A stretch of DNA of 64,000 nucleotides from Candidatus Poribacteria bacterium (GCA_965262955.1 CBDHGE010000001.1:3103637-3167636); one strand, 5' to 3'; shown: positions 3,174-40,559, counted from the stretch's first letter. The notes: a model not told the origin generated them from the letters alone. Program-made: numbers and translations.

Positions 3174-3219
3174 TTTAGTTTTCCAATAATTTACATCCGG
3201 ACGCCCGAACTTGTTCGGG
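3174..3219 (+). repeat. Interspersed repeat family A, partial copy (3' core tttagttttccaataatttacatccggacgCCCGAACttGTTCGGG with terminal palindrome)
   Basis: Near-identical to 30600..30644 and 40505..40559. The CCCGAAC/GTTCGGG arms are perfect inverted repeats. Confidence 0.6.
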
Positions 3220-3272
3220 GTAAGGCGCGTGAACCCTAACAAGGATGTAATTCAAAGAATGGATTTAGTCTA

Positions 3273-4880
3273 TTAAGGGTTAACAACCCTAACGTCCTCT
3301 CCCTCTTTTAAAGAGTGTTGTCCAGCAGTGACGACGGCATCCCCTTCCATGAGTCCGCTGATAACTTCAGCCTGACTGCCTCGTAAAAGTCCTATCTCCA
3401 CGACACGCCGTCTGCTCACATTATCTTCGATGACGAAGACGTTTTGTGTTTTTGTATTGACATTCTCAATGAGTGAAGCACGCGGAATCAGAAGTGCGTC
3501 TGTATGTACTTTGATAGGAACGGTAACTTTCGCAAACATTCCTGGCTTCAGAGTGCCTTCGGGATTGTCAATGCGAACCTCGACAGTTGCTATTCGCCGA
3601 GACGCTTGTAGCGTCGGGCTGATGAAAGTGATTGTGCCTGACATCGGTGTATCTATGCCATCAATTTCTATTGTTGCCTGTTGGTTGAGTGCCAATTGGC
3701 TCAACTGCGTCTCGATGACATCAACGGTAGCTATGACACTATCAATATTGACAATTTCAAAAAGTGGTGCTGCTGGAAGTGCCATTCCACCTAAATCTAA
3801 ATAGCGTTTGGAGATAACACCCGAAATCGGAGCGTAAATCGTAGCATCTTTCAGACGTTTTTGGGCGAGTTTGAGAGCAACCTGCGCTTGTGTACGTGCT
3901 GTTTTTGCCGATGTGATCTCTGCTTCCCAACTTTTCGCAGTTTCTAAGGCTTCGGCGGCAGTGAGTCCTGCACGTGCTGTTTCGACTTGCGAACGGGCAA
4001 GTTCAATATCTTTTTCCCATGTTTTTGTAGCCGCTTGTGTCTCTGCCAATCGTAGAGACGCTTCTGCTTGTTCGACCTGTGCTTCCATCGCTTGAATGTC
4101 CTCGACGCGAGCACCATTATCAATAAGTTGCAGTTGCTCTGTAGCGATCTTATGCTGCGCTATTGCGATGTCTAACTGCGTCTTCGCACTTTCAAGGGAT
4201 TGCTGGCTGATCGCACCGTTTTGGAAGAGTTCGGTCATTCGATCGTGATTGCTTTTAGCATTGGCGAGGTTCGCATCGGCTTGGTTTAGACCGGCTTCTG
4301 CTTGTCTCCGATCTTCAGCACGGGCACCACTTTTAATTTTCTGCAGATTTGCGACAAGCGATTCTAATGCTGCTTGTGCTTGTTCTATTTGCGTGACCGT
4401 TCGGATTTCAGAAAGGTCTACTACCTGTTGTAGTCCTATCTCTGCGGCGTGAAGTTGTGACTTCGCTTGCGCAATTTGTGTATGGACTCGGACTTCCGCA
4501 AGCTGCTTTGCCTGAGAATAGGCTGTTTCTGCTGATTCCAGGATGGCTTCTGATTGTTGCACTGCGAGTTGTAGTTCCTCATACTCCACAGTGGCAAGAG
4601 GGGCGTCTTTCTCAACACGGGCACCTTCATCTACATTTAAAGTGATAATACGTCCAGCGATCTTGGGGTAAACGCTAACTTGTGATTCTGCTTGAATGGT
4701 ACCCGATAGTTGATGTTCTAAACGGATCTCACCCCGTTTTGCCTTTGTGACTTCTACCGGTTTAAGCACAATAGCTTCAGCTTGTTGGGGCGCGGGGCTT
4801 TCACGTTTCATAAATCTTGGCACGGCTAAAATCACTGCGATTATTAATAATATACCGATGCCAATCAGTACTTTCTTCAA
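3273..4880 (-). CDS. Efflux membrane-fusion protein (HlyD/RND periplasmic adaptor family)
   Basis: N-terminal TM anchor, about 300 aa of coiled-coil (repeated AQ/LE heptads), C-terminal beta-barrel/lipoyl-like region (GMFAKVTVPI...ALLIPRASLI). Start is TTG at 4880 with AAGGAG 10 nt upstream. Confidence 0.8.
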   Translation of the reverse strand: MKKVLIGIGILLIIAVILAVPRFMKRESPAPQQAEAIVLKPVEVTKAKRGEIRLEHQLSGTIQAESQVSVYPKIAGRIITLNVDEGARVEKDAPLATVEYEELQLAVQQSEAILESAETAYSQAKQLAEVRVHTQIAQAKSQLHAAEIGLQQVVDLSEIRTVTQIEQAQAALESLVANLQKIKSGARAEDRRQAEAGLNQADANLANAKSNHDRMTELFQNGAISQQSLESAKTQLDIAIAQHKIATEQLQLIDNGARVEDIQAMEAQVEQAEASLRLAETQAATKTWEKDIELARSQVETARAGLTAAEALETAKSWEAEITSAKTARTQAQVALKLAQKRLKDATIYAPISGVISKRYLDLGGMALPAAPLFEIVNIDSVIATVDVIETQLSQLALNQQATIEIDGIDTPMSGTITFISPTLQASRRIATVEVRIDNPEGTLKPGMFAKVTVPIKVHTDALLIPRASLIENVNTKTQNVFVIEDNVSRRRVVEIGLLRGSQAEVISGLMEGDAVVTAGQHSLKEGEDVRVVNP

Positions 4881-4958
4881 TTTGTCTCTCTCCTTTTATC
4901 GACGTTATGCGGAAATTATATCTGTTTTGTCCGAGGCAAGATTCCTGTATTCTATTTT

Positions 4959-6362
4959 CTATTGTAGACTTTGTCCTATCGCTTTTTCCAGTCTTACCAA
5001 ACCGACGACGTAATCATGATGTGCTTGAAGGCGATTAACTTCTGCTTGTGCGAGGGCGAGTTGTGTGTCAGTCAACGCAACGGTGGTAATAATACCGTTT
5101 TGAAATTGTAGGTTAGCGATACGGACACTTTCTCGTGCTTGTGCGATAGCCTCGCGCTGAACATCGATAAGGGTTTGTGCGCCAAGAAGGTTGAGATAGG
5201 CGGAGCGGACCTCAAATTCGACACCTACTTTGACTTGGTCGCCACCTAACTGGATCTGTTTTAGAGCAGATTCGGTCTGTTGCACGGCTGCGCTCGTTGC
5301 GAATCCATCAAAAATCGGGATGTTAATTTGAAAACCGACACTCCAGATCCTGTTCATTTCCGTAAGTCGTTCATTCTGTGAAATCTGATAATTTGAGAAC
5401 AGACCGAGGTCGGGAAGCCGTCGCGTTTTAGCAATGTCAATCTGTTTGTAAGCCGCTTGTTCACTAAATTGTGTGCGGCGTACCTCTGGGCGATTTTCGA
5501 GTGCTTGTTGTATTAATTTATCAAGATTTAACGCCGGCATTTGATGATTTTCTGGTATTGCGAGTGTGCCTTTTACTGTTACATCCTGTGCGAGTGGGAC
5601 GTTAAGCACTGTTTTATAGGCGTTTTTAGCGGTACGAACGCCATTTTCGGAGCGAATTAGCGTTGATTTAGCGTTTGCGAGTTGAACCTTTGCACGAAGG
5701 ACATCAAAGTTAGTCGCTGCACCTGCTTCAAGCGATACCTCCGCAATTGCAAGTTGTTCTTCAACGAGGGAAACGCTCTGCTGCGCTACTCTAACGAACT
5801 CTTGTGCGACCAAAGCACCGTAGAAGGCTTCGGATACGTCTAAGCGGAGTTGATTATAGGCAGCATCGACATCGCGTTGTGTAGCCTGATAGTTGAGTTG
5901 TGCGGCTTGGTAGCCATAATAATAACGTCCCCAGGCAAAGATCGGCTGTGTTAAATTAACTGTGCCTTGGGCGTTGTGATGTGCACCAAATTCCAATTCA
6001 ATCAGGTCGGCTTCGTTATCCGCACTGGGCGGTTGCATCCCATTCATTGCTTCGCCCGGCATTGGAAATCCGAATCCGCCATCGGCTCGAATTACTGATT
6101 TTTGGATGTCCTTAAAATAGGTGTAATTGCCGCTTGCTGCAACCCGTGGTAAGAGTCCCCCGAGTGCTGCACGAACTTGTGCTTCGGCGGCTTTAAGGTT
6201 TTGTTCGGCGGTCTGAACGGTCAGATTGTTCTGTTTGGCAATTTCAATGCTCTCTTCTAACGTCAAAACCTTCGGTTCTTGCGCCATAGCAGAGAGGTGT
6301 ATTAGGAGTAATAATAAGGTTCCACCAACACAGATGAAGTGGCGGAACCGTAGTGGGTGCAT
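4959..6362 (-). CDS. Outer-membrane efflux protein (TolC-like OMF)
   Basis: Signal peptide then LTLEESIEIAKQNNLTVQTAEQNLKAAEAQV... Two tandem TolC repeats (QLRLDVSEAFY..., LGGDQVKVGVEFEVRSAYLNLL). Start moved to ATG at 6362 (GGAGG upstream). The ORF track's longer 6461 start lacks a signal peptide. Confidence 0.8.
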   Translation of the reverse strand: MHPLRFRHFICVGGTLLLLLIHLSAMAQEPKVLTLEESIEIAKQNNLTVQTAEQNLKAAEAQVRAALGGLLPRVAASGNYTYFKDIQKSVIRADGGFGFPMPGEAMNGMQPPSADNEADLIELEFGAHHNAQGTVNLTQPIFAWGRYYYGYQAAQLNYQATQRDVDAAYNQLRLDVSEAFYGALVAQEFVRVAQQSVSLVEEQLAIAEVSLEAGAATNFDVLRAKVQLANAKSTLIRSENGVRTAKNAYKTVLNVPLAQDVTVKGTLAIPENHQMPALNLDKLIQQALENRPEVRRTQFSEQAAYKQIDIAKTRRLPDLGLFSNYQISQNERLTEMNRIWSVGFQINIPIFDGFATSAAVQQTESALKQIQLGGDQVKVGVEFEVRSAYLNLLGAQTLIDVQREAIAQARESVRIANLQFQNGIITTVALTDTQLALAQAEVNRLQAHHDYVVGLVRLEKAIGQSLQ

Positions 6363-6480
6363 TGTCCTTGTGTCCTCCAAGGTTGGGTAAAGGCAGGTTT
6401 TTAGCAGGTTCACCTCTACAAATGAAATCGTGAAGGTAGGTGGGCAATGGGCTTTGCCCACCTAAGTTGGATAAGCAAGA

Positions 6481-8370
6481 TTAATAGCGAATGATAGTCG
6501 TCGAATCGCCGATTGCCCAAAGTGTGCCACTTGGTGTTTGGACAAGATCCCACAGATCACTTGCAGTCGGTGATTCCTGCATCAACCAAGTGACACCACC
6601 ATCGGTTGTGTGGAGGATTGTGCCATTTTCTCCAGCTGCCCAGCCTTCGTTGGCATCATGAAACAGAATAGCGTTGAGATTCGTTTGCGTTGGGACTGTC
6701 TGCTCGGTCCACTCTACACCACCATCCGTAGATTTCATAATGGTGCCTTGTTCTCCAGCAACCCAGACAGTCTGTGCGTCAAGAGCGAAAGCATCTTTTA
6801 AAGTTGCCCCTCTCTGCATAGGTGTCCAAGTCTGGCCCGCATCCATAGTCTTTGCGATAGTTCCAGCATCACCAACGACCCAACCGGTTTTGTCGTCTAT
6901 AAAGTGGACCCCGTAGAGGTTATTAAAACCTGCGCCTGTCATCATTGGGTCTATATCTTGTCCGATCCATGTTTGTCCTGCATCGGTGGTATGCATAACT
7001 CTTCCGGTTTCCCCGACAGCCCATGCGTGTGTCGCTGTTCCGAAACTCATGGCGTAGGATCCCATTGCACTACGCCAACTCATCATGCCTTCAAATATAA
7101 TGCGTTTGGCAGTACCGTGTCCTTCATCACCTGGGTCGCTAACCCCATGCCATGTTTTCCCGCCATCAAGTGTTTCTGCAAGTGCTGCATTGCTTCCAAC
7201 GATGTAACCTCTGTTAGCATCCACGAATCCGACGCCGAAAAGTTCAAAGACGTTTCCACTAAGTTGCGGTTTCCACGTTTCACCGCCATCATTGGTATGC
7301 AGAACGCTCCCTGACAAGCCGACCGCCCAGCCGAGTTTGTCGTCATGAAAATAGACACTCCGTAAATGGCTTGAACTGGAGACGATGTCCCAGGTGTCTC
7401 CACCGTCAGTTGTATGTATGATAGTTGCATCATTTCCGACCATCCATGCTTCGGTTGGACTGAGCATGTGGATACCTTGTAAACGAGACGCAACGGGGCG
7501 CGGATCAAGGGGTGCCCAACTTATGCCACCGTCTGTTGTACGGAGGATTACACCGAATTCGGCGGCGGCAATACCAACCTTTTCATCAGCAAAGTGAACA
7601 TCCCAAACAGGTTCAGGCATACCGTTAGAATTTGGGACTCTACTCTCTTGGACTTCCCAATTGGTACCATCAACTGTTGCAACAATAGCACCACCGGCAC
7701 CGACTGCCCATCCGACTTTTTCACTTAGCATAGAGATTGCATCGAGTGTATTAACTGTCGCACTGGTCTGGAATTCCCATGTCTCTCCACCATCTTTGGT
7801 ATGGAGAAGGGTGCCACCGCCGCCTGCTGCCCAACCGACCGTCGCACTCACAAAGTCGACCCCTTCAATTGTATTGTTGGTATCGATTTCCTGTTTTGCC
7901 CATGTCGTGCCACCATTTTTCGTGCTAATGATGAGACCCCCATCTCCACTCGCCCATCCGTGTTGTGCATCGGCGAAGGAAACACCTAAGAGGGCGGTGA
8001 GGGTGCCTGTGTTCTTTTTCATCCACGTCTGCCCGCCATCTGTGGTTTTCAGAACCATACCATCGTCCCCAACAACCCAACCGGTTTGCGGGTCTATAAA
8101 GCGGACTTTCTTTAGTACAAGGTCAAATGGCAGCGGTTGACTCGGCTGCCTGTTCCATGTTTTCCCACCATCTTTGGTATGTAGGATTGTTGAATTGCTA
8201 CCTACGATCCAGCCATGTTGTGCATCTACAAAAAAGACATCGGAGAAGTGCGCCTGCCACTCGGATTCACTGACTTTCATCCACGCTTTTTGGGCAAGCG
8301 CTAACTGCACAGTGCAGAGCAAGAGCAGGGCTACCAAAATAGATAATATATGTTTTCTCGGTTTCATCAA
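6481..8370 (-). CDS. Secreted BNR/Asp-box repeat protein (Ycf48-like / sialidase-fold beta-propeller)
   Basis: Signal peptide and at least 12 S/T-D-G-G-x-T-W Asp-box repeats (KDGGKTW, TDGGQTW, KNGGTTW, KDGGETW, TDGGISW, TDGGDTW, NDGGETW, LDGGKTW, TDAGQTW, MDAGQTW, TDGGVEW, TDGGVTW). Confidence 0.75.
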   Translation of the reverse strand: MMKPRKHILSILVALLLLCTVQLALAQKAWMKVSESEWQAHFSDVFFVDAQHGWIVGSNSTILHTKDGGKTWNRQPSQPLPFDLVLKKVRFIDPQTGWVVGDDGMVLKTTDGGQTWMKKNTGTLTALLGVSFADAQHGWASGDGGLIISTKNGGTTWAKQEIDTNNTIEGVDFVSATVGWAAGGGGTLLHTKDGGETWEFQTSATVNTLDAISMLSEKVGWAVGAGGAIVATVDGTNWEVQESRVPNSNGMPEPVWDVHFADEKVGIAAAEFGVILRTTDGGISWAPLDPRPVASRLQGIHMLSPTEAWMVGNDATIIHTTDGGDTWDIVSSSSHLRSVYFHDDKLGWAVGLSGSVLHTNDGGETWKPQLSGNVFELFGVGFVDANRGYIVGSNAALAETLDGGKTWHGVSDPGDEGHGTAKRIIFEGMMSWRSAMGSYAMSFGTATHAWAVGETGRVMHTTDAGQTWIGQDIDPMMTGAGFNNLYGVHFIDDKTGWVVGDAGTIAKTMDAGQTWTPMQRGATLKDAFALDAQTVWVAGEQGTIMKSTDGGVEWTEQTVPTQTNLNAILFHDANEGWAAGENGTILHTTDGGVTWLMQESPTASDLWDLVQTPSGTLWAIGDSTTIIRY

Positions 8371-8763
8371 GTTTCACAGCGTCAAAACACACGCCCATTA
8401 GGTGTGAAGTGAACGCTGACCTCCTTACTTCTTAGAATGGGCTTGCAAGCAACGCCCCTCGTTTTAGATAGTGCCTTTACTCCTCAAGGACTATGAACTG
8501 AAGTCTATATGCTTTGTTCTATTTTATATAATACTACTCTTGAAAGATTATGTCAACCGAAAAGTAAGGGCATTTAGATCGTTTAGCTTTCCTTTTTCCG
8601 CAGTAGGCGAGGTTTGTAACCTTGCCGATCTACCTTACCAATCCACTTCTTTCCTCTATCCTGCAAATCTTGGTTCAGACAACTCATAACCCACAACCTA
8701 CTACCTTCTTAACTAACCGCTGATAGCTGATAGCTGAGAACTGGACACCCTATAAAAATTGGG

Positions 8764-8799
8764 TTGACGCTTGCCTTAGTCTTGTGGCATAATCATAAT
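8764..8799 (+). promoter_or_regulatory. Putative sigma70 promoter for LamG-1 (TTGACG, 18-nt spacer, CATAAT; duplicated cataat)
   Basis: ttgacgcttgccttagtcttgtggcataatcataat, about 90 nt upstream of the 8888 start. The -10 is imperfect. Confidence 0.3.
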
Positions 8800-8887
8800 T
8801 GGATTAGGTTCAAAAAGATCTCGCTAATCTGTTAGATAAATTCGTTTTGTTGGGACAAAAATATCTCAACACATTTAGGAGGTTTTT

Positions 8888-9691
8888 ATGAAATTTATGA
8901 CCCAATTGATCTGTGTAGGATTTAGTCTCATTTTAAGCCTATGCCTATTTCTCACACCTGCCTTCGCCCAGCTTGGGATGGATACCTTAGTGGGGCTTTG
9001 GCTGTTTGATGAAGGTAGCGGCGACACCGCTATGGATTCTTCCGACAGTGGGCTTGATGCAACCTTGGTAGGGAATCCGAGCTGGGTAAGTGGCGTATTT
9101 GGTTCAGGACTGGAGCTTGACGGTTCAGGTGCCTACGTTGAGGTCCCCGCACACGTAAATCCGACTGATGCAATCACCGTCTCAATCTGGGTGAAAAGTA
9201 TGACGGATGATTGGAATCAGCACGGTTGGATGGTTGAAAAGCGGAATGCATATATTATCCATCCAAACCAAGGGACCAAAAACGTTTCCTGGCCCATCTG
9301 TAACAACGGTTGTTGGAACAAACCCGGTGGCTGGCGCGATGGCGAAGTCGGACCCGATGACATCACCGAATGGCATCTTTACACCGCTACTTTTGACAGC
9401 GCAAGCGGTGAGTGGAACATCTATATCGACGGTGTAGCAGAAAGCACAATGGAAATCAATACCGATCCAATTGATGCTGACGATGGTCCGGTTTTTATCG
9501 GTCGGGATACCTGTTGTGATGGCAGATTTGGCGATGCAGTCATCGATGAAGTCGCTATCTTCAACGTTGCCTTGACCGAAAGTGAAATCCAGATGATGAT
9601 GGATAAAGGGCTTTCAGCATTGCTCCTGACCCCTGTTGAACCCGAAGACAAGCTCTCTACGACTTGGGCAAATGTGAAACAACAGTATTAA
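8888..9691 (+). CDS. Secreted LamG-like (Laminin_G_3 / concanavalin-A-like jellyroll) protein, paralog 1
   Basis: Signal peptide, LVGLWLFDEGSGDTAMDSS...GNPSWVSGVFGSGLELDGSGAYVEVP (canonical Laminin_G_3 opening), C-terminal ...LSTTWANVKQQY. RBS AGGAGG 7 nt before the ATG. Confidence 0.7.
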   Translation: MKFMTQLICVGFSLILSLCLFLTPAFAQLGMDTLVGLWLFDEGSGDTAMDSSDSGLDATLVGNPSWVSGVFGSGLELDGSGAYVEVPAHVNPTDAITVSIWVKSMTDDWNQHGWMVEKRNAYIIHPNQGTKNVSWPICNNGCWNKPGGWRDGEVGPDDITEWHLYTATFDSASGEWNIYIDGVAESTMEINTDPIDADDGPVFIGRDTCCDGRFGDAVIDEVAIFNVALTESEIQMMMDKGLSALLLTPVEPEDKLSTTWANVKQQY

Positions 9692-9698
9692 TCGCATT

Positions 9699-9736
9699 CA
9701 GTAGGCGAGCAACGTTTCTTCCCTGCTCGCCTACTG
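9699..9736 (+). terminator. Strong hairpin downstream of LamG-1 (13-bp perfect stem CAGTAGGCGAGCA/TGCTCGCCTACTG, 12-nt loop). Likely a terminator or attenuator.
   Basis: Perfect inverted repeat read directly. No clear T-run follows. Confidence 0.4.
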
Positions 9737-9915
9737 CACTATCAACTTTCCTGCCCTATAGGAACCTCTCCACACATCCACAATTTCCTTGACATCAATT
9801 CACCCCTATGCCATACTGAACAACGAAGTTCGGGCTTGATATCCGATTGTTGATATCAAGCCGTAGCTTGCGCATACTGCTTAGATTTCGTCTTGAGAAA
9901 GGAACATTTATTATT

Positions 9916-15600: not shown

Positions 15601-16473
15601 TCAGTCCTTAGCGGGTGGAAACGGTTTCACAGGTTCATTAATTTGATTTCCTCTTGGGATAGGTTCCGGTGGAAATTGCGTGAAAATCTCACCATTCTTC
15701 ATCGCCCATCGGGCGTTGGGGAAGAAGCGTTTGTTCCTCCCAGCAATCTCTGGATTTGTCCAAACGCCAGCAACGGCAACACGACTCTGCTCACTTTTGT
15801 TTGGTGGACTGTAGTGCCACATATTACTGTGCCAAAAGACAACGTCTCCAGTCCCTAATTCAATATGGCGTACACCGTGCTTTTCGATCATCTCCTGAAC
15901 GGCTTTGCGTGGCAATTCACCGTGAATACTGTCTGGGTATAGGACGTGTTCGATAATCTCGGTTTTGTGACTGCTCGGTATAAACTGCATGCATCCGTTT
16001 TCGCGAGTTGCAGGTTCAAGTGCTACCCAGAAATTGAGAGGTTCAGTATCGCCATCTCGCCAGAGTCCGTTGTCTTGGTGCCACGGGGTTGCAGCACCTG
16101 TGCGCGCCGGTTTGAGGAAGCTACTATTGAATTTCACAATCACGTCGTCTCCCAAAAAATAGCGGGCAATGTTCAGCATGGCAGGACCGGTATGGATATT
16201 GTGCCATATCAGCGGAGATTGAACACAGAAATTAGCGAGTTTACGGTAGCGTGCGATGCGTCCTTGCGGTGAGTCCTCCATCGGGTTCATTGGATCGAAA
16301 TCGGCAAACTCGCCAGGGTTGGGCAGCATAAGCACGTTGCGAATGACGCCGCGGAGTTGTGCTGCCAAATCTTCTGAGATAACATTGCGCTCAATAAAAT
16401 AGCCTTCACTCTCATATCGCGCTTTTTGTGCAGCGGTTGGTTGCCAGTTTCGCATGAAAATGTTTCCAGTCAT
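15601..16473 (-). CDS. Phytanoyl-CoA dioxygenase (PhyH) family Fe(II)/2OG oxygenase, tandem copy A
   Basis: WHQDNGLWRDG...FWVALEPATRENGCMQFIPSSHK...VFWHSNMWHYSPPN (HxD...H facial triad). About 88% identical to 16511..17422. Likely true start is M7 (16455), by alignment with the paralog. Confidence 0.85.
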   Translation of the reverse strand: MTGNIFMRNWQPTAAQKARYESEGYFIERNVISEDLAAQLRGVIRNVLMLPNPGEFADFDPMNPMEDSPQGRIARYRKLANFCVQSPLIWHNIHTGPAMLNIARYFLGDDVIVKFNSSFLKPARTGAATPWHQDNGLWRDGDTEPLNFWVALEPATRENGCMQFIPSSHKTEIIEHVLYPDSIHGELPRKAVQEMIEKHGVRHIELGTGDVVFWHSNMWHYSPPNKSEQSRVAVAGVWTNPEIAGRNKRFFPNARWAMKNGEIFTQFPPEPIPRGNQINEPVKPFPPAKD

Positions 16474-16510
16474 TTAGACAACAACGTCTCTTTTCTTCGA
16501 TGATATAAGA

Positions 16511-17422
16511 TTAGTAGCCCTTAGCGGATGGGAACGGCTTCGGTGCTTTAGCAGTTTGATGTTCCATCTGGACAGCTTCCGGTGGAAATTGTGTGCACAC
16601 CTCACCGTTTTTCATCGCCCATCGGAAGTGTCCCCAGAAGCGTTTACTAATCTTGGTGATCTCTGGATTTGTCCAGACACCGGCAACGGCAACACGGCTC
16701 TTCTCACTCCGATTGGGTGGGCTATAATGCCACATATTACTGTGCCAAAAGACAACGTCTCCGGTACCTAACTCGATGTGATGTACACCGTGCTTTTCTA
16801 TCATCTTCCGAACCTCCTCACGCGGAAGTTCGCCGTGGATGCTATCTGGGTATAACACGTGTTCAATAATCTCAGTTTTATGGCTGCCGGGTATAAACTG
16901 CATGCATCCATTTTCTCGGGTTGCTGGCTCAAGCGGCGTCCAAAAATTGAAAGGTTCAGTTTCACCATCTCGCCAGAGTCCGTTGTCTTGATGCCACGGG
17001 GTCGCGGCACCAGTACGCGCTGGTTTAAGGAAGCAACTATTAAACTTCATGATGATATCGTCGCCAAGGAAATAACGGGCGATGTTGAGAAGGGCAGGAC
17101 CCGCAAAGGTGTTGTGCCATATCAATGGGGCTTGGACACAAAAGTTGTTAAGTTTACGGTAGCGTGCAATGCGTCCTTGTGGTGAGTCTTCCATTGGATC
17201 CATGGGATCGAAATCAACAAACTCACCCGGGTTGGGCAGCATAAGAACATTCCGAATGACACCACGGAGTTGTGCTGCCAAATCTTCTGAAATAACATTA
17301 CGAAGGATAAAATAACCTTCGTCCTCATATTGTGCTTTTTGTGCAGGCGTTGGTTCCCATCGTTCCATTGTTAATTTCCTTTGCTTCTTTGTGGGGCTGA
17401 TGCGCTTGCGATGCCTACCCAT
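16511..17422 (-). CDS. Phytanoyl-CoA dioxygenase (PhyH) family Fe(II)/2OG oxygenase, tandem copy B
   Basis: Same motifs as copy A. Probable start is MERWEPT at 17368 (AAGGA RBS). The ORF track's 17422 start adds a basic N-extension. Confidence 0.85.
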   Translation of the reverse strand: MGRHRKRISPTKKQRKLTMERWEPTPAQKAQYEDEGYFILRNVISEDLAAQLRGVIRNVLMLPNPGEFVDFDPMDPMEDSPQGRIARYRKLNNFCVQAPLIWHNTFAGPALLNIARYFLGDDIIMKFNSCFLKPARTGAATPWHQDNGLWRDGETEPFNFWTPLEPATRENGCMQFIPGSHKTEIIEHVLYPDSIHGELPREEVRKMIEKHGVHHIELGTGDVVFWHSNMWHYSPPNRSEKSRVAVAGVWTNPEITKISKRFWGHFRWAMKNGEVCTQFPPEAVQMEHQTAKAPKPFPSAKGY

Positions 17423-30319: not shown

Positions 30320-30534
30320 TTTCAAATCCCTTCCTTCTCTCCTATTGTACGCAATCAACCAGATTCGCATTGCTTTTCTGTTACTAAATAAGCAATTTCC
30401 ATGCCAAATTTAAAATAGGGGACAGAACGGGAAATATAGTGGATTCAGTGGCGAAACGTAAGTTTCGACTGCACAAAATAGGGCAAATAAGGAGATAACT
30501 GCACGGATTTGGGCAGAGGCAGATAGGAAAAAAC

Positions 30535-30644
30535 GTGAGTTCGAGAAAGAAAACTTGTACCGTAAACTGTTAGTTTGCAATACTTCTGGGTAGGTTCATT
30601 CAGTTTTCTAATAATTTATATCTGGACGCCCGAACTTGTTCGGG
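30535..30644 (+). repeat. Interspersed repeat family A, full copy (about 110 bp ending in CCCGAACttGTTCGGG)
   Basis: gtgagttcgagaaagaaaacttgtaccgtaaactgttagtttgc...ttttctaataatttatatctggacgcccgaacttgttcggg. About 85-90% identical to 40439..40559. Confidence 0.6.
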
Positions 30645-30768
30645 ATAAATGAAAAAAGATGTCCCTGTCGCGGACGTCCAGATTTAGCCTGTGAATAGAC
30701 TGGATTTAGTCTGGGATTAGACTAAATTTTGCCCACACGCGGCACAATTTGTCTTTGCTTTACATTAA

Positions 30769-31725
30769 TTATCGAATGGCGATCGGATTGCCAGGAGAAC
30801 CCGTCGCACCCTTAAGGCGAAGCGGCGCAAAACTGAAAGCAAATTCGTAAACCTTCGCCGCCGCTAACTCCTCCGTGATAATGTTCTCAAGATTGTAGAT
30901 GCCGTGTTTGACAATAAACAATTGATGCACTGGAAACGCTAATGATTCGTCAGGGTTCGGAACGACTTCAATTCCCCAGTTATCGGAACATAACATCACA
31001 ATCTTCTGGTCAACGAGGTATTGTCCCGCCTCCATTCCGATGCCGGGTTCTGTGGCTCCATAGCGATCATTATCCGTCATCCAGAACTTACCCCAACCAG
31101 TGTGAATGATGACGACATCGCCGGGTGTAATTTGGACCCCTTGCTTTTTCAGAGCACCCTCCAGATCGGCGCGCGTGATTTCGTAACTATCGCTGAGATG
31201 CTCAACGCCTTTATAACCAGCGACATCAATGAGGACACCGCGCGTCACAATCGGTCCTACATTCTCAACACCGAGTTCCGTGAGACCTTCGGCTTTGGCA
31301 AAATCGCGCTGGTTCAACCCGTTGTAGTAGAGGTCACCGATACCGATGTGACCGAGTCCATCAAATTGCGTGCCAATTTGACCGATCTCGCCACTGAAGA
31401 TTTCTTCAAACCACGTTGTTTTATTTTCACCAAGCGGACCTGACATCGCCGGAATTCGCAAGCTATAATGCCGCGTTCCAAAGACGGGGATACCACTTTC
31501 ATAGACTCTGCCGAGTTGATAGACCTCACCGGTTTTAATCAAACTCGCCGCTTCCAATACTTTCTCAGGCGTTAGTCGGTTGACAGCACCCCGCCGATCA
31601 TCAGCACCCCATTCAGAAGGGAACCACGATTCTTGTGTGAGGGTAACAGTTGATGTGAGGGCAAGTATGCCAAAGACAAGCCCAAATAGAATAAAACGCT
31701 GGTGTTTTTTCGGTTTTTTGAACAT
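30769..31725 (-). CDS. Cyclase-family protein (kynurenine formamidase-like metal hydrolase)
   Basis: Signal peptide. GTQFDGLGHIG (HxGTHxDxPxH-type block). Confidence 0.8.
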   Translation of the reverse strand: MFKKPKKHQRFILFGLVFGILALTSTVTLTQESWFPSEWGADDRRGAVNRLTPEKVLEAASLIKTGEVYQLGRVYESGIPVFGTRHYSLRIPAMSGPLGENKTTWFEEIFSGEIGQIGTQFDGLGHIGIGDLYYNGLNQRDFAKAEGLTELGVENVGPIVTRGVLIDVAGYKGVEHLSDSYEITRADLEGALKKQGVQITPGDVVIIHTGWGKFWMTDNDRYGATEPGIGMEAGQYLVDQKIVMLCSDNWGIEVVPNPDESLAFPVHQLFIVKHGIYNLENIITEELAAAKVYEFAFSFAPLRLKGATGSPGNPIAIR

Positions 31726-33871: not shown

Positions 33872-36379
33872 TTAATGCGGAATCCCCAATTGGTGCATCC
33901 GACGGTGAATTGCTTCTCGTGCTTCTTGGAACGGACGAGAGAGGAATTCCAAGTGATCATCCTCACCGTGATGGTGCGTCACAGTCCCGTGTTCGTGGTG
34001 GCGTGCCGTTTGCTGGATATAGGACAGCCCACCCTCAATCAGAGTCAACATGTAGTTTGCCGTTTCTGGATCGAACATCCACCACTCACCGCCGACAGCA
34101 ATATAGACGGGTGAGGTGTGGGCAATAATGCCCCGTCCCCAGCCATCGTGATGTGGAATGGCTTCCGCATAGTTAGGTCCGCCACATCGCGCAGCAATCC
34201 AAGAGTGCTTATCCACCTTCAGGTTGGCTTTCAGGCGTAAATGCGATTTACCCTCTTTGTCCTCAGTGGAAGCAACCACCTGTCCTGCCTGAATAATCTG
34301 CAGCGTATGGATCGGGAAAATGGAATCCGCAGAGGCTTCCACCTCGACAGTGCCGCCATTACCGGGAAGGTTGATCGTGCTACCAATCGGTTGCCCGTCA
34401 ACGGTGAGACCGATCATGGGACCGCCACTCAGGAAAGTGTTACCAGCACTCATGTATTTACACCAGTTATCGTAATTGAATTCCTCATCATCGGGAATGT
34501 GGACGTATGTGCGATAAACGCCTACTGGTACATCACTACTCATCTTATCTGTCCCACCCACGAGAGGCAATTTATAGCCACAGTTAAGATAACGGTAATA
34601 CTCAATATGTCCATACATGGCATTGGTAAGATACTCAACGGCATCTACCCGTCCAGTGGCAATCAGTGTCGCTGGTTCGCAGTTCGGATTCGGAATATGC
34701 GGTAAGACAACAGTCCCACCTTGTGCATGACAGGCATCTGCCCAGTGGGAGAGTGTGACCTCCATATTTCCACCGAGTTCGGCTTCTCCAGGTCCATCAG
34801 AACACCACGGCGCGACCTGTTCCTTTAAACCGAGAAGTGTAAGATGACCGAGGAGATGCTGACGGTTCTCTTGGGTCGCATAGACGATGCTTCGTCCGTC
34901 GGCGGATGTCGTGGGTCTACCGATGAACTCCTCTGTATTCGTGAAGAGATGCCCCCACTGTGAAAGAAGAAGATTCACGACGCCGAGGTCTTCACCTTGT
35001 GCTTCAGTGTGTGCACCTTGTGTAGACAAGAAATGGACGTGCGTATCGCCGCTGAAATAACGTTCAGCGTTCATATCACACCACCGTTTTATCCGCAGCG
35101 TCAACTCGCGTTGCCCGGGTTTTATATTCACGGTCGTCCGTAGTGGTGTGTATTCAAAGCCGCGGGCAACATCAACAATAACATCCCCGCGAGGCAGCCA
35201 TCCTTGACACGTGCCGTCAATATAGGCATAACTAATCTGTCCGAGTCGTACATCACCACCGACATCTATGTGCCATGTGCCGTTGTTTGAGTTGACGTGA
35301 GCGTGATGTCCGTGTGGCGCGTACGGCACACCGTGCGGGGAACGGAAATGGATACGACACGGCACGGGTTTGCCTGTATCTTCATCAATCACTGTGGTAT
35401 GCACCCAGTTCCTGCCAGAGTCGATGACCTCCACCTTGACGCGTTCGTTGGGTTGAACACTTCCCTTTTCTTGGACTTCACCCCAGTTGACGCTGCCGAG
35501 GGTTTCACCGTGGTTCTTGACTTCAACAGTAGCCGATGGAGTAGCAGATACCTCAGTGTACGCAGGGCTACTCTTGTCGTTTTGGGATTCACCCCAGCCT
35601 TTGAAATCGTCGTTAATAAAGGCATCGGGAGCATTTTCCGGCAACGGATAAGGGTAGGTTGCTGAGCCACGGTCAACGTTGACTTCTATGTCAAAAGGTT
35701 TATCAGCATCATCAGATTGAGGAAGCGTGATTTTGACTTCCCGACGAGGACGACGCGGTATCGGACTTTCGTCGAGGTAACCAAGCGTGATTGCTGCAAC
35801 AATAAATCGTCGTTCCTGTGGTTGAATCTCAATTGATGCTATTTCAACGCCATCCCTCGGATTTTTCCACACCCACAAATAGTAGTCGCGCGGCGTCCCT
35901 TGGGTTGCCTCAGTTTGTCGGTTACCCGCTGAACCCCATGCCCCTTCATGCCGAGGTAATAAACCTTCTTGTCGGTCAGGTATGGCGAGGAATGTCTGTT
36001 GTCCCCATCCTTGCGGAACGCCGCCAATCTCAAAGCGTTCACGAATCGGCACACTGACCGTTTCACCGTCAGTGTAATGGAATACATAATTGGCGATTAA
36101 TCTGGCTATCGGTTCGCCTTCAGGTATGCGCGACTCAAGCAAGCGATGTACAAAGATAACTCGCTTTGGGTCTTCGTTGACAGAAACTTGGATGGAATCG
36201 CTATTAACCCCTTCGCCGAAGCCCAAAAAACAGGATGCACCTTCAGCGATTTCAAAAGGAAGCCCGTGGAACGTCTGTGACCCAACACTCGGCGTTGCGT
36301 CCGCACCGATAACTTCTGGACCGACATTACACAAACCAGAAAGTGAAATAGGTTGGTAGTCTCGCATAATAAACCTCAA
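33872..36379 (-). CDS. Large (835 aa) hypothetical protein with His-rich putative metal-dependent hydrolase region
   Basis: ERYFSGDTHVHFLSTQGAHTE (HxH), PHGVPYAPHGHHAHVN, C-terminal HHEHGTVTHHHGEDDH. Possibly PHP/CehA-McbA-like. No signal peptide. Function not established. Confidence 0.45.
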   Translation of the reverse strand: MRFIMRDYQPISLSGLCNVGPEVIGADATPSVGSQTFHGLPFEIAEGASCFLGFGEGVNSDSIQVSVNEDPKRVIFVHRLLESRIPEGEPIARLIANYVFHYTDGETVSVPIRERFEIGGVPQGWGQQTFLAIPDRQEGLLPRHEGAWGSAGNRQTEATQGTPRDYYLWVWKNPRDGVEIASIEIQPQERRFIVAAITLGYLDESPIPRRPRREVKITLPQSDDADKPFDIEVNVDRGSATYPYPLPENAPDAFINDDFKGWGESQNDKSSPAYTEVSATPSATVEVKNHGETLGSVNWGEVQEKGSVQPNERVKVEVIDSGRNWVHTTVIDEDTGKPVPCRIHFRSPHGVPYAPHGHHAHVNSNNGTWHIDVGGDVRLGQISYAYIDGTCQGWLPRGDVIVDVARGFEYTPLRTTVNIKPGQRELTLRIKRWCDMNAERYFSGDTHVHFLSTQGAHTEAQGEDLGVVNLLLSQWGHLFTNTEEFIGRPTTSADGRSIVYATQENRQHLLGHLTLLGLKEQVAPWCSDGPGEAELGGNMEVTLSHWADACHAQGGTVVLPHIPNPNCEPATLIATGRVDAVEYLTNAMYGHIEYYRYLNCGYKLPLVGGTDKMSSDVPVGVYRTYVHIPDDEEFNYDNWCKYMSAGNTFLSGGPMIGLTVDGQPIGSTINLPGNGGTVEVEASADSIFPIHTLQIIQAGQVVASTEDKEGKSHLRLKANLKVDKHSWIAARCGGPNYAEAIPHHDGWGRGIIAHTSPVYIAVGGEWWMFDPETANYMLTLIEGGLSYIQQTARHHEHGTVTHHHGEDDHLEFLSRPFQEAREAIHRRMHQLGIPH

Positions 36380-36500
36380 TTATTGGCTGTCAGCTGTCGG
36401 CTATCAGTTTTCAGATTTCGGTAGATTATTGTGCGGATGCCACCATTGTCTTCAAATACAACGATCTCTGGAAACCGACTGCTGACTGCTGACTGCTACT

Positions 36501-37508
36501 TTAAAGCGGAAAATCAATTGACTTTCCCTGTTCAGAGGACATATAGAACGCTTGCATCAACTCTGTGAGGTTGCGTCCATCTTGGATAGTAATCGTCATC
36601 GGTTCATCGCGAAGAATAGCGTTAATCCACTGTTGTATCGGTTCAGGTGGTGCTTCCGGGGCATTGGCGATATATTCTGCTTTTTCTTCATCAGAAAGTT
36701 TGCGGGTCTCAAAATGCATCTCACCGTGTCCCGCAGCGAATGAACCCTCAGTCCCGAAAATCTCAAGCATGTTCGGACCCGAACGATGTGTCCATGCAAC
36801 ATCAATCACGCCGAGTGCCTTATTTGCGAATTCAACAACTGATACGCTGTTATCATCAATCGGGAAATTACCAGTGAAATTGTTAATTTTAGCGATAGCA
36901 CTTTTAGGTTCACCCATCAACCACCGGATAACATCGACACGATGACATCCCAAGTCGAAAAGTGCACCGCCACCGGCGCGCTCAGGATCTGCGAACCATG
37001 CGCTTGTACCACTGAACCAACTGTCCAGCGCGGCAGAATGTGCAATCCGTCCCCTACCAAATGTAATGTCTCCAAGCAGTCCATCGTCAATCGCCTTTTT
37101 CGCAAATAGGATTTCGGGGTTAGCCCGCGAAGGCAGCGAAATCATGAACTTTACACCGGCTTTCTCAACGGCTTCGATGATTGGATCGCACTCCGCAACA
37201 GTAATGGCAAGGGCCTTCTCGGTAAAGATGTGTTTCCCAGCTTCAGCAGCGGCGATCATCACGCGCGGATGATCAGACGTGATCGCATCAACAGCGACTG
37301 CGTCTACGTCGTCACGACTAAGGACTTCATCCAGATCGGTATAAAATGGAACTTCATATTGTTCCGCTGCCTCTCTACCGCCCCCGCCATGGTCAAAGTC
37401 CTCTTCATCCCAGACAGCGACGAGTTCAGTTTCAGGGTTTTCGTTAATTTTTCGGGCGTAGCCACCAGCGTGGACGTGTGCCATGCTAATCTTTGCGACT
37501 CTAATCAT
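36501..37508 (-). CDS. Gfo/Idh/MocA-family oxidoreductase
   Basis: N-terminal Rossmann fold, EKALAIT, dimerisation domain. Confidence 0.85.
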   Translation of the reverse strand: MIRVAKISMAHVHAGGYARKINENPETELVAVWDEEDFDHGGGGREAAEQYEVPFYTDLDEVLSRDDVDAVAVDAITSDHPRVMIAAAEAGKHIFTEKALAITVAECDPIIEAVEKAGVKFMISLPSRANPEILFAKKAIDDGLLGDITFGRGRIAHSAALDSWFSGTSAWFADPERAGGGALFDLGCHRVDVIRWLMGEPKSAIAKINNFTGNFPIDDNSVSVVEFANKALGVIDVAWTHRSGPNMLEIFGTEGSFAAGHGEMHFETRKLSDEEKAEYIANAPEAPPEPIQQWINAILRDEPMTITIQDGRNLTELMQAFYMSSEQGKSIDFPL

Positions 37509-37543
37509 TTAATTCTCCTTTTTGAAGGGTGTGCTGTATAAAA

Positions 37544-38317
37544 TCATATAATCCTTCCCACAGAAGAGCGGGTTGCCAGATGATTCCAGCCACGAAGAAC
37601 CAGTTTGACGTTGGTATGGCGGTTTTCGGCTTCGATCTCATCATCACCAGCATGCATCTGAACCAGAACACTTTTTCGGGTTTTGTTGGAATGGTTCGGC
37701 ATCGAACCGTGTAGCGTGAAGTAGCTAAAGAAAAGGACATCTCCCGGTTCCGCTTCTAAAACGGTTGCCTTCTCAATCGGGTATCGCTCCGTAACCTCAG
37801 CGTTAGCACCACTTCCCATCATGCCGTCGGTGCGTCCCAGCTGCTTGTGAGAGCCGGGATAAACGCGAACACAACCCATCTCATCGGTAGCTTCTGAAAC
37901 GTAGATCATAGCCGCTATCATTGTGTCTTTGACAGAGGGAAAATACTGCCAATCTTGGTGCATTGGGAAAGGAGAGCCTGTCTCCGGCGGCTTACAGAAA
38001 AGTTTGGAATGGTGAAGCATTATATCTGGTCCGAGAATGGCTTCAGTGACATCAAGAAACCTTTCCTGCATGAACGCTTGCATCCAAACGCCAGAGAAAC
38101 TCTGAATATTATGGGTATGGATAATAACGGATTCACCACCATCAAGGGCATCCATCAATCTACCACCCCAACGGGCGTTCACGTTCTCGTCGCTTTTAAG
38201 AAGCTGATCCACCACGCGATCGAAGTCGTTTTCCATCGCCGTGATTTCTTCAACTGAATAGACACCCTTGGCGAAGTAATACCCGTTTTCGTGAAAAAAT
38301 TTTCCTATATCTGACAT
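37544..38317 (-). CDS. PhyH-family Fe(II)/2OG dioxygenase
   Basis: MHQDWQYFP...VRVYPGSHK...FFSYFTLHGSMPN. Confidence 0.85.
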   Translation of the reverse strand: MSDIGKFFHENGYYFAKGVYSVEEITAMENDFDRVVDQLLKSDENVNARWGGRLMDALDGGESVIIHTHNIQSFSGVWMQAFMQERFLDVTEAILGPDIMLHHSKLFCKPPETGSPFPMHQDWQYFPSVKDTMIAAMIYVSEATDEMGCVRVYPGSHKQLGRTDGMMGSGANAEVTERYPIEKATVLEAEPGDVLFFSYFTLHGSMPNHSNKTRKSVLVQMHAGDDEIEAENRHTNVKLVLRGWNHLATRSSVGRII

Positions 38318-39081
38318 TACGGTTTTGTAACCTCCAGAAAAAAATTATGGAACCAATCTAACGAGGATGTTTCTACGGTATCGACTTCGGTGATCTCCTC
38401 GCGCAGCTCACAAAACGTTTTGAACGCTGCGAACCGTCCATCACGCAGAATTCCAATGAATTTTCCATCTTGCGAATCTGTATTGCACAACCTATGGACA
38501 TCCTCAAGGCGGTTGGTAGCAAGTACAATGGTTTTTCCCATCGCTCGAAGTTCTTCAAGCAATGCTACCATCTCGATCTGCCCACCCGAATCAAGCGGCG
38601 TGAGCGGTTCATCAAGCAACCATAACTGCGGTTCGTGCAGGAAGGTTTTAGCGAACAATAGTCGCTGCCGTTCTCCTGTTGATAGGATACCGATTTTGGT
38701 GTCGCGTAGATTTTCAATATCCATTAACTCAAGCGCTGCGTTGATTGCAGCATCACGTTCGCGTTTGTCCAATTTATATGCAGCGGCGAAAAACTTGAGG
38801 TAATCGGTAACGGATAACTCAGAATACCCTTCAAAAGCAACGGGGATATATCCGATAGATGAACGCACCTGTCTCAGGTTCGCAAATGCATCGATCCCGT
38901 TGATAGAGACGCTACCCGATGTTGGTTCCGCTAACGTTGCTAAAATGTTGAGCAGGAGTGTCTTACCTGCCCCATTTCTGCCAAGTAGCACGAGACACTC
39001 CCCAGCTGCCACCTGAAACGTAAGTTCCGTGAGGAACGGTTTCTGGTCAAAGGATTTGGACAGGTTTTGAACATCAAGCAT
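38317..39081 (-). CDS. ABC transporter ATP-binding protein (no adjacent permease)
   Basis: Walker A GRNGAGKT, signature LSTGERQRL, Walker B LWLLDEP. The start of the downstream PhyH gene overlaps the stop by 1 nt. Confidence 0.85.
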   Translation of the reverse strand: MLDVQNLSKSFDQKPFLTELTFQVAAGECLVLLGRNGAGKTLLLNILATLAEPTSGSVSINGIDAFANLRQVRSSIGYIPVAFEGYSELSVTDYLKFFAAAYKLDKRERDAAINAALELMDIENLRDTKIGILSTGERQRLLFAKTFLHEPQLWLLDEPLTPLDSGGQIEMVALLEELRAMGKTIVLATNRLEDVHRLCNTDSQDGKFIGILRDGRFAAFKTFCELREEITEVDTVETSSLDWFHNFFLEVTKP

Positions 39082-39159
39082 TTTTAACAGTTCGCCATGT
39101 AAACCGTGGATTTTCTTGTAAGGCCTGCTTTTCGAGTCTGGAGAAGCTGTTGTATTAAT

Positions 39160-40206
39160 TTAACGCAAGTCCACTTTAACAGGTCTGCCGAGTTCTGCGG
39201 ACTGCCACGCAGCTTCAGTTAATTGAATAACACGTAATCCGTTCTCGACACCGATCGGATTATCTGTCCGTTCACCTCGGATAAGCTCAATAAAGGTGAC
39301 ATCCTTGTTACCTGATGCCGGCATTTCAGACGCGTCGACAAGTTCCGGATTACCTTCCCGTCCTTGGCGATAGAGTTGACCTGCGCGAAGATAAAGCGCG
39401 CCTTCCTCAAGCCAGATAGAAAAATCTTCTCGAACGCCTCCAAAAGCGTGTCCGACAATGCTAATATTACACAAGGCGCCCGTATCAAACTTGATTGACA
39501 TCGCCGTGAGAACATCTACTTCAATGTCCAAGTTGTCTATCATCGCGAAAACGGTGTCAGGACTCGCTTCCAATACCCAAAGGAGAATGTCAATCAGATG
39601 GCTCCCTGAGTCGTTCAATTGTCCACCGCCGCCAAGAAATGGATCTTGTCGCCACTTCCCCTGCTGATTTCGATACCAGTTCTGCGATTGATGCGCCGAC
39701 ACAAAGTTCACGCGACCCAATTCACCACTCTGGACTATATTGCGGCAGTATTGATAGGTCGGACTCAGATGGCGTTGGTAGCCGATCATCAGGTGCAAGC
39801 CGGTCTCTTCCACTTTTGCGATCACCTGTTTAGCGTGATCCACGGTGCAGACCATCGGTTTTTCCGTGTGCACATGGCATCCTGCATCAAGTGCGTCCAT
39901 GATGTGCTGGAAATGCAGACCGTGCGGTGAGCTAATGACAACAGCATCAGGCTTCGCAGCAGCCAGCATCTCAACGTGATCCGAATAGGTAGGCAGAGAT
40001 GCGTCTAAACCAACGTTTTCCTTGAAGGCATCGAGTGAACTTCCACTCGGATCCGCAAGGGCAACAATCTCTACATCTTCAACACTTGATACGCTCCGTC
40101 CGTGTCCACGGGCGTTACCACCACATCCGATGAAGGCAAAATTTAGTTTCTGTTTTGACAATTGTATATCGCTCCCGTACTTAAATCTTGGTGCATAACC
40201 TATCAC
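39160..40206 (-). CDS. Gfo/Idh/MocA-family oxidoreductase
   Basis: LNFAFIGCGGNARGH Rossmann motif, EKPM block. Confidence 0.85.
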   Translation of the reverse strand: MIGYAPRFKYGSDIQLSKQKLNFAFIGCGGNARGHGRSVSSVEDVEIVALADPSGSSLDAFKENVGLDASLPTYSDHVEMLAAAKPDAVVISSPHGLHFQHIMDALDAGCHVHTEKPMVCTVDHAKQVIAKVEETGLHLMIGYQRHLSPTYQYCRNIVQSGELGRVNFVSAHQSQNWYRNQQGKWRQDPFLGGGGQLNDSGSHLIDILLWVLEASPDTVFAMIDNLDIEVDVLTAMSIKFDTGALCNISIVGHAFGGVREDFSIWLEEGALYLRAGQLYRQGREGNPELVDASEMPASGNKDVTFIELIRGERTDNPIGVENGLRVIQLTEAAWQSAELGRPVKVDLR

Positions 40207-40359
40207 AACCTATAATAAAAGTGCAAGCGTTAATTTCTGATCCAAAATGCGAGATATATTGTGTAAAAATGCTTATTTAAACTTGAACTCGATAATAGAG
40301 ATGCAAATGGACATCCTAAAGTCAAACCCACATTAGATAAGTAACATTTTAAATTTAAC

Positions 40360-40388
40360 TTGACATAAGTTAATAAAAATAATATAAT
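40360..40388 (+). promoter_or_regulatory. Perfect-consensus sigma70 promoter (TTGACA, 17 nt, TATAAT) inside an AT-rich island
   Basis: ttgacataagttaataaaaataatataat read directly. Points toward repeat-A copy 3 and the TonB-dependent receptor about 1 kb downstream. Confidence 0.45.
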
Positions 40389-40438
40389 ATATCATGACTC
40401 TTTTCACATGTAGAAAATCGGCAATTTGATAAAGAAAT

Positions 40439-40559
40439 GTGAGTTCGAGAAAGAGCACTTGTACCGTAAACTTTTAGTTTGCGTGCCTCTGAGTAGAATA
40501 GTTCAGCTTTCTAATAATTTACATCCGGATGCCCGAATGGATGCCCGAACTTGTTCGGG
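40439..40559 (+). repeat. Interspersed repeat family A, full copy with internal duplication of the gcccgaa unit
   Basis: gtgagttcgagaaagagcacttgtaccgtaaacttttagtttgc...tttctaataatttacatccggatgcccgaatggatgcccgaacttgttcggg. Confidence 0.6.

Follow-up and report, generated by a model that had tools for sequence, protein, structure and literature searches.

Three intergenic repeats of a Candidatus Poribacteria genome as probable fragments of REP- and MITE-type mobile DNA

A 64,000-nt stretch of a Candidatus Poribacteria genome (GCA_965262955.1, CBDHGE010000001.1:3103637-3167636), analysed here in full and called the window, holds three copies of an intergenic repeat that a first-pass annotation had described as one interspersed family, "family A", of about 110 bp ending in the palindrome CCCGAAC-TT-GTTCGGG. 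Our analysis indicates that these copies are very likely decayed fragments of non-autonomous mobile DNA. The palindrome appears to be the repetitive extragenic palindromic (REP) element of a clade of REP-associated tyrosine transposases (RAYTs), whose gene it flanks in relatives, and the sequence upstream of it matches the left arm of a miniature inverted-repeat transposable element (MITE) with terminal inverted repeats and target-site duplications. The suggestion that the copies might be REP- or MITE-like was thus right in both senses. "Family A" itself is a composite of three modules, namely an alpha hairpin unit found in copies 2 and 3 only, the MITE left arm and the REP, here called beta.

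The 16-nt palindrome CCCGAACTTGTTCGGG has three exact matches in the window, all on the + strand, at 3204-3219, 30629-30644 and 40544-40559, compared with 0.02 expected, which bears out the number and places of the annotated copies; this count applies to the 64 kb of the window. In each copy it is a perfect and identical 7-2-7 palindrome, it belongs to a 21-nt unit composed of GGAyG and CCCGAAC-TT-GTTCGGG, and its hairpin appears in every predicted fold. Copy 2 (30535-30647) and copy 3 (40439-40562) are 78% identical over about 132 aligned nucleotides, and copy 1, which has the 3′ part only, matches copy 2 at 89% over 56 nt. Copy 1 begins near 3166 rather than at the annotated 3174. The internal duplication reported in copy 3 is a 12-nt tandem, with GGATGCCCGAAT (40527-40538) followed by GGATGCCCGAAC... 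(from 40539). All three copies sit in gaps between open reading frames (ORFs), as had been noted (2965-3272, 30371-30768 and 40207-41188), and they do share the + strand, although agreement among just three copies carries no statistical weight. Repeat-derived sequence common to copies 1 and 2 continues on the right side of the palindrome and includes the module GGATTTAGTCT, called delta, at 3261-3271 and 30702-30712, so that the repeat-derived tracts reach about 3272 and 30766, respectively.

The link between the palindrome and a transposase comes from related genomes, whose loci are cited below by L numbers, and from RAYT homologues that were collected by protein search, independently of the DNA pattern. 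On a complete Poribacteria chromosome, a tblastn search with a RAYT query located a 199-aa ORF (L062:2453-3052, - strand) that scores 88.3 bits against the NCBIfam equivalog NF047646, "REP-associated tyrosine transposase" (cut-off 80), and matches both Pfam Y1_Tnp (4.5e-11) and 4er8, the structure of E. coli TnpA_REP (E 6.5e-7). Eleven members of its clade all keep the HUH histidines and the catalytic tyrosine. They also share a C-terminal extension, conserved and about 60 aa long, past the part that aligns with E. coli TnpA_REP. The clade is small, with 9 representatives at 50% identity and E<=1e-30 among 1.8 billion proteins. In Poribacteria the gene is single copy and has a conserved syntenic position, with a 277/278-aa gene on one side and TPR/BatD genes on the other.

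The beta 21-mer flanks RAYT genes on both sides in L062, L095, L101 and L104. At L062 it lies directly past the RAYT stop codon, and at least 6 inverted copies form an array directly before the start. Across the Poribacteria loci L062, L095 and L101, the sequence GGA[AC]GCCCGAACTTGTTCGGG occurs 9-27 nt upstream of the gene and its inverse 8-10 nt downstream, often in tandem; the orthologues at L095 and L101 have 75-76% identity and the same two-sided architecture. A further RAYT at L106 (86% identical) has an inverted REP downstream, and its upstream flank runs into an assembly gap. More distant homologues, with 48-58% identity (among L096-L105), are flanked by REPs built to the same plan (GGA-N-G/T, stem, AAC-NN-GTT), and at L096-L100, L102 and L103 the stems differ and remain self-complementary, as in GCGCGAAC..GTTCGCG, CCGCAAC..GTTGCGG and GCAAAAC..GTTTTGC. 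One of these genes belongs to an Anaerolineales metagenome-assembled genome (MAG), CAZZEX01, which also has dispersed beta REPs. Judged from sequence, the palindrome with its 5′ GGA-N-G tag is thus apparently the cognate REP of one RAYT clade. By analogy with E. coli TnpA_REP, the enzyme would bind the folded single-stranded hairpin together with the tag, and would then cut and rejoin the DNA. In the literature searched, neither REPs nor RAYTs were found described for Poribacteria.

The beta REP is also widely dispersed. Scanning one genome per species with the pattern GGANGCCCGAACTTGTTCGGG returned at least 94 stretches, mostly, among the matches listed, from at least 9 Candidatus Poribacteria assemblies, and at least 12 of the stretches lie in a single 5-Mb Poribacteria chromosome. 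The scan therefore fits the expectation of many copies genome-wide, and the presence of the same modules in at least 9 other Poribacteria assemblies shows that the window copies are no artefact of assembly. Further listed matches are from MAGs labelled Anaerolineae/Chloroflexi, Armatimonadetes and Nitrospira, as well as from unclassified MAGs. The 33 nt upstream of the window REP (GGnTCATTyAGTTTTCyAATAATTTAyATCy) recur, among the matches listed, in Poribacteria only, with at most 93% identity over 58 nt, which by itself points to a Poribacteria origin of the window; blastn of the window against the loci retrieved gave no long matches. Viral contigs, searched for a phage vector of the cross-phylum REP, gave 0 matches. 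In related genomes, an inverted partner lies 8-27 nt away from 61 of 106 exact beta REPs, forming a doublet, and only 29% of REP centres, compared with 85% of background positions, are inside open frames of 150 codons or more (p = 3e-38).

In Poribacteria the beta REP usually occurs as such a doublet within a larger unit. Pairing of the conserved outer sequences in related Poribacteria genomes yielded 29 complete elements, most commonly 143 nt long, with the termini YAGGGnCATTyAGTTTT...AAAACTrAATGnCCCTR. The element is sharply bounded, occurs in many copies, is without coding capacity and has an inverted beta REP doublet as its core. Direct repeats of 9-10 bp with at most one mismatch flank 19 of the 29 elements, compared with 0.67 expected from shuffled pairing; examples are TATCGCATGC, TATCATATCC and GCCAGGGTAT. 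Target-site duplications are a signature of DDE-type transposition, and the Y1 transposases of the IS200/IS605 family are not known to make any. The duplications therefore mark the element as a MITE with a REP doublet at its core. In the mechanism that we propose, an inverted beta REP doublet was built into a 143-bp miniature inverted-repeat element in Poribacteria, and this element would spread with 9-10 bp duplications that point to a second, DDE-type transposase.

Alignment to the full elements places the start of the MITE-derived part of each window copy at the left terminus (3166, 30591 and 40494), from which it extends across the short arm as far as the left REP. The window copies retain only these three parts of the element, abutting alpha in copies 2 and 3, and copies 1 and 2 in addition hold remnants of delta, a third mini-element. 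The modules are as follows.

3166 to 3198, + strand: MITE left terminus and short arm of copy 1, TTGGATCATTTAGTTTTCCAATAATTTACATCC
3199 to 3219, + strand: beta REP of copy 1, with tag GGAC, G and hairpin CCCGAAC-TT-GTTCGGG
3220 to 3272, + strand: spacer, decayed inverted REP CCCTAACAAG (3234-3243) and fused delta remnant GATGTAATTCAAAGAATGGATTTAGTCTA of copy 1
30535 to 30590, + strand: alpha unit of copy 2, a GTAC-tagged hairpin GTACCGTAAACT-GT-TAGTTTGC at 30557-30578 with conserved flanks
30591 to 30623, + strand: MITE left terminus and short arm of copy 2, TAGGTTCATTCAGTTTTCTAATAATTTATATCT
30624 to 30644, + strand: beta REP of copy 2, GGACGCCCGAACTTGTTCGGG
30672 to 30766, + strand: decayed tagged half-REP GGACGTCCA (30672-30680), delta hairpin copies and delta end TTGCTTTACATT (30755-30766) of copy 2
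40439 to 40493, + strand: alpha unit of copy 3, hairpin core at 40461-40482
40494 to 40526, + strand: degenerate MITE left terminus and short arm of copy 3, TAGAATAGTTCAGCTTTCTAATAATTTACATCC
40527 to 40538, + strand: extra 12-nt tandem copy in copy 3, tag and left stem half
40539 to 40559, + strand: beta REP of copy 3, GGATGCCCGAACTTGTTCGGG

The terminus of copy 1 is slightly degenerate relative to the consensus YAGGGnCATTyAGTTTTCCAATAATTT, and its right tract, which runs to the stop codon of an HlyD-like gene, belongs to a recurrent variant (CCCGAACAAGAATGTAA...) that is present in L016, L058, L062, L072 and L084. The second half-REP of copy 2 is in direct orientation, and the tract ends 2 nt short of the stop codon of a cyclase gene. 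Copies 2 and 3 both break off at GGGATA, which suggests that the composite of alpha and half a MITE was probably duplicated as a unit within the genome.

The proposed 110-nt consensus is, on this evidence, not a single family; its separable modules recombine independently in other genomes, where they occur in either orientation and in other combinations. Alpha (TGTAsCryAAACTGTTAGTTTGy, with tag GTAC or GTAG) lies outside the MITE terminus and makes up the 5′ half of copies 2 and 3. The loci examined contain 22 further copies, including a five-copy tandem array, and in some variants both stem halves have changed together (CACAAACT..AGTTTGTG compared with CGCAAACT..AGTTTGCG). It is because alpha adjoins other element types elsewhere that "family A" has to be regarded as composite. 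Delta, of about 44 nt, has its own hairpin (GATTTAGTCT-loop-AGACTAAATCC...TTGTATTACATT). At L016, L046, L050, L072, L084 and L093, six independent REPs from several genomes, it lies inside beta-type REP stems directly after CCCG, in place of AA, and looks like a site-specific insertion into the REP hairpin; its remnants in the window are at 3244-3272 and 30681-30766.

Several other repeats touch on these modules. An approximately 190-nt palindromic element in L009, L051, L055, L082 and L088 has outer arms (TGTAGCGCAAACTGTATGAAG...CTTCATACAGTTTGCGCTACA) equal to the alpha REP hairpin halves and a beta-type REP doublet at its centre, and looks like a doublet cassette inserted in the loop of an alpha REP. 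A family that we call gamma, at 40975-41052 and 49988-50065 of the window (83% identical), forms a long hairpin with a GTAG tag (CTGTAGGAGCGAG...CTCGCGAC). It is related to repeats flanking another RAYT gene, unrelated to the first (L055:6700-7182; NF047646, 126 bits), and a MITE-terminus-like sequence at 49964-49989 abuts gamma. The 25-nt repeat ATCCTGyAAATCTTGGTTCAGACAA is present at 8658-8682 and 40607-40631 (96% identical), and similar sequences follow alpha units or lie intergenic in L046, L079, L082 and L090.

A palindrome shared by three intergenic gaps might alternatively be an operator-type site for a dimeric regulator or nucleoid protein, unrelated to transposition. The perfect 7-2-7 symmetry, identical in the three copies, and the presence of sigma54-type promoters in two of the three host gaps agree with such a role. 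The tag does not: among 66 hairpins whose stems differ from the one searched, 60 have GGA five nucleotides upstream on exactly one side and none has it on both. The one-sided tag makes the site asymmetric, as canonical REPs are and a symmetric operator would not be; it reads GGA-N instead of GTAG, its fourth position being free (A, C, G or T). Moreover, the two halves of the stem change in step with each other around a constant apical AAC-NN-GTT and beside a constant tag, and the tightest and most consistent association of the palindrome is with RAYT genes. The genes beside the three copies have no common functional class. Copy 1 lies between the HlyD-like gene (3273-4880, -) and a GHMP kinase, copy 2 between a putative cyclase (30769-31725, -) and a 172-aa protein of unknown family, and copy 3 in a divergent gap between a GFO/IDH/MocA oxidoreductase (39160-40206, -) and a TonB-dependent receptor. 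We therefore consider an operator very improbable.

The sigma54-type matches (TGGCAY-N5-TTGCW) merit description in their own right. The window has only two, at 30391-30406 (-) and 41257-41272 (+), compared with 0.23 expected. The first is conserved in L107 and L108, with conserved TGCACAAATCCGTGCA-like sites upstream, and the second in L187 and L188. A link between the repeats and these promoters was judged coincidental, since their orientations differ and copy 1 is without such a promoter. The second site falls inside the ORF called from the ATG at 41189, indicating that the TonB-dependent receptor probably starts near 41353. Upstream of this receptor promoter is a palindrome, TGTCCAATAAATGAACA (41182-41198), of which L187 and L188 have a perfect form, TGTTCATTTATTGAACA; it may be an activator binding site. 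The same gap contains CACTTTC-type boxes about 12 nt apart (approximately 40648-40754), with three overlapping 24-nt repeat units at 40680-40727, followed by a palindrome ACAGCACTATGACAGTCATAGTGCTGT, and the box array looks like a set of protein-binding sites.

Close relatives do not have the composite at the intergenic sites orthologous to those of copies 2 and 3. At L107, where the cyclase is 96% identical at the amino acid level, the gap downstream of the cyclase has no alpha, beta or delta. Its homology to the window begins again near 30534, the left boundary that had been annotated for copy 2. At L108 (cyclase 87%) only a short terminator-like hairpin occupies the site. The gene order around copy 3 is the same at L187 (oxidoreductase 91%) and L188 (90%), with entirely different gap contents, including four alpha-like GTAG hairpins with another stem at L188; only the segments beside the two flanking genes are conserved.

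These orthologous sites bear on the possibility that the copies are cis-acting RNA or DNA hairpins exapted by the host, which would stabilise mRNA 3′ ends or modulate read-through, their mobile origin being secondary. Some E. coli REPs act in this way. On the - strand, the genes 3273-4880 and 30769-31725 end 54-70 nt and about 125 nt before copies 1 and 2, respectively, and each of these copies is between genes on the same strand. The copies also fold better than shuffled controls (z -2.9 to -3.8), and copies 2 and 3 agree at about 93% in their hairpin modules compared with about 63% in the linker. However, such z-scores are a consequence of the palindromes alone, the divergent gap of copy 3 has no gene ending upstream of the copy, and relatives with flanking genes 87-96% identical have no composite at the same sites. 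Terminator-like tails are likewise missing. Intrinsic terminators were considered and rejected, as the copies have no T-runs and scans found no terminator at any of them; the hairpin is followed on the + strand by GTAAGG, ATAAAT or ATACCT and on the - strand by CGTCC or CATCC. Exaptation is therefore an unlikely primary explanation. Most likely, the copies are inert passengers in tolerant intergenic gaps, and any effects of the hairpins on neighbouring transcripts would be secondary, such as a possible contribution to mRNA 3′-end stability at copies 1 and 2.

The first-pass annotation had also raised a small-RNA family and had noticed a perfect sigma70 promoter before copy 3. The promoter is real in sequence terms: TTGACA-17-TATAAT at 40360-40388 (+) matches at 12 of 12 positions, is unique in the window and has an expectation of 0.01. 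It lies 50 nt upstream of copy 3 and is not part of the repeat. In other Poribacteria genomes it is kept at about 85% over 42-53 nt (L082 4994-5046, -; L093 2419-2460, -), and behind it the two genomes share about 290 nt of conserved non-coding sequence, with differing downstream genes and no Rfam match. No family-A sequence is near this cassette in L082 or L093, and the promoter with its conserved sequence is a candidate non-coding RNA or promoter cassette. A small regulatory RNA family with its own promoters would accord with this promoter and with two stable hairpins on the same strand, but on the + strand neither copy 1 nor copy 2 is preceded by a promoter-like site, and none of the three copies has a terminator behind it. 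Copy 1 is also without the 5′ half, the modules recur elsewhere in either orientation and in other combinations, and the composite is missing from the orthologous sites of copies 2 and 3. Rfam searches gave nothing relevant for the whole window at gathering thresholds, or for the copy 2 and copy 3 gaps at E<=1, and the window has no tRNA or tmRNA genes. Thus, a small-RNA family has very little probability, and the promoter upstream of copy 3 belongs to a conserved cassette separate from the repeat.

Several observations weigh against reading the copies as decayed mobile DNA. The RAYT, the full 143-bp element and its target-site duplications are seen in other genomes, and would be linked to the window copies via module homology; tblastn of the window, first with an approximate E. 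coli YafM query and then with two Poribacteria RAYTs, detected no RAYT. The window has no intact REP doublet, as copy 1 has the decayed second arm CCCTAACAAG and copy 3 no second arm, and the window copies, being left halves only, have no right MITE end beside which a target-site duplication could show. A parent insertion sequence is similarly missing: in about 700 kb of loci, no terminus pairs 0.4-4 kb apart have matching duplications, and no transposase-like ORF adjoins the solo MITE termini. Termini of CAGGG with 8-10 bp duplications recall the ISAs1 family, a resemblance that we take as a lead only. In addition, copy 3, behind a genuine-looking strong promoter, is probably transcribed, and the stronger conservation of modules than of linker between copies 2 and 3 could mean constraint and hence some host function.

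A broader reading would join these observations into a system of nested hairpin mini-elements, where one stretch of DNA is subject to two unrelated transposition systems. In it a new RAYT clade, marked by its C-terminal extension, would act on GGA-tagged REPs, REP doublets would travel in a MITE that forms target-site duplications, and REP stems would serve, directly after CCCG, as landing sites for delta. We regard this as possible though rather doubtful. If it held, the alpha-to-beta unit of the window, which has a hairpin at each end on the same strand, could be a palindrome-associated element mobilised by a Y1 enzyme instead of a dead fragment. REPIN-RAYT systems are pictured as mostly vertically inherited, and a REP design, sometimes the exact 21-mer, in at least 4 phyla would then be at odds with that picture.

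Interpretation of the copies as fragments of mobile DNA accounts for the length and repeat content of the intergenic gaps in sponge-associated Poribacteria; such gaps are mosaics of REP- and MITE-type debris, and for that reason need not be pursued as small-RNA or regulatory candidates. It also adds a REP-RAYT pair, with GGA in place of the canonical GTAG, in a candidate phylum for which none was found described in the literature searched, and provides an unusually clear example of REP doublets packaged in a MITE that generates target-site duplications. Because the REP design is common to distant and mostly uncultured lineages, it could be used to test how strict the vertical inheritance of REPs and RAYTs is. 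There is some novelty here, limited to the REP-in-MITE arrangement, the nested delta insertions and the cross-phylum REP design; the three window copies themselves are ordinary decayed repeats.

Three further features of the window concern its genes. The closest homologues of the oxidoreductase beside copy 3, called as a 348-aa ORF, have 333 aa and cover 95% of it, suggesting that translation probably starts about 15 codons downstream of the GTG at 40206. Within the gene at 6481-8370 (-), a 51-nt unit occurs seven times at 61-75% identity, as is typical of repeat-domain proteins. At 15601-17422 (-), the genes 15601-16473 and 16511-17422 are adjacent paralogues with 300 nt in common at 77%.

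Among known systems, the closest comparison is with REP/REPIN-RAYT systems, such as the REPs and bacterial interspersed mosaic elements (BIMEs) of E. coli with TnpA_REP (YafM; PDB 4ER8) and the REPINs of Pseudomonas fluorescens. The beta element resembles these in being a short extragenic hairpin with a one-sided conserved tag that, in relatives, frequently occurs as inverted doublets (61/106) and flanks, as inverted REPs, a single-copy Y1/HUH gene in a syntenic slot, and the protein at L062 exceeds the NCBIfam RAYT equivalog cut-off and matches 4er8. It differs in its tag, GGA-N instead of GTAG, although the alpha module does have GTAC or GTAG, and in its stem of only 6-7 bp with a fixed apical AAC-NN-GTT. 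Further differences are the C-terminal extension of about 60 aa in the RAYT clade, the presence of the beta design, sometimes as an identical 21-mer, in MAGs of several phyla, and the restriction of the window to singlet REPs.

The larger element resembles, in relatives, the MITEs of DDE-type insertion sequences in its length of about 143 bp, terminal inverted repeats, 9-10 bp target-site duplications, lack of coding capacity and many copies. It departs from them in that its core is identical to the REPs that flank RAYT genes, which brings two unrelated transposition signatures together in one element; its parent insertion sequence was not found in the loci covered, and the window copies are left halves in which no duplication is seen.

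A superficial likeness exists to CGTC-tagged REPs, since copies 1 and 2 end on the other strand in ...GTTCGGG-CGTC-C. The CGTC-tagged families have 8-9 bp stems beginning with AT, loops of 4-5 nt and no associated RAYT (Di Nocera et al. 2013, PMC3733652). Membership was therefore rejected, as the fourth tag position of beta is free and the geometry of stem and loop differs (PMC3733652).

Finally, enterobacterial BIMEs are likewise intergenic mosaics of REP types and linker motifs whose order and orientation vary. The mosaics described here differ from them in module sequence, and in that some modules lie inside the stems or loops of others, as delta does in beta stems.

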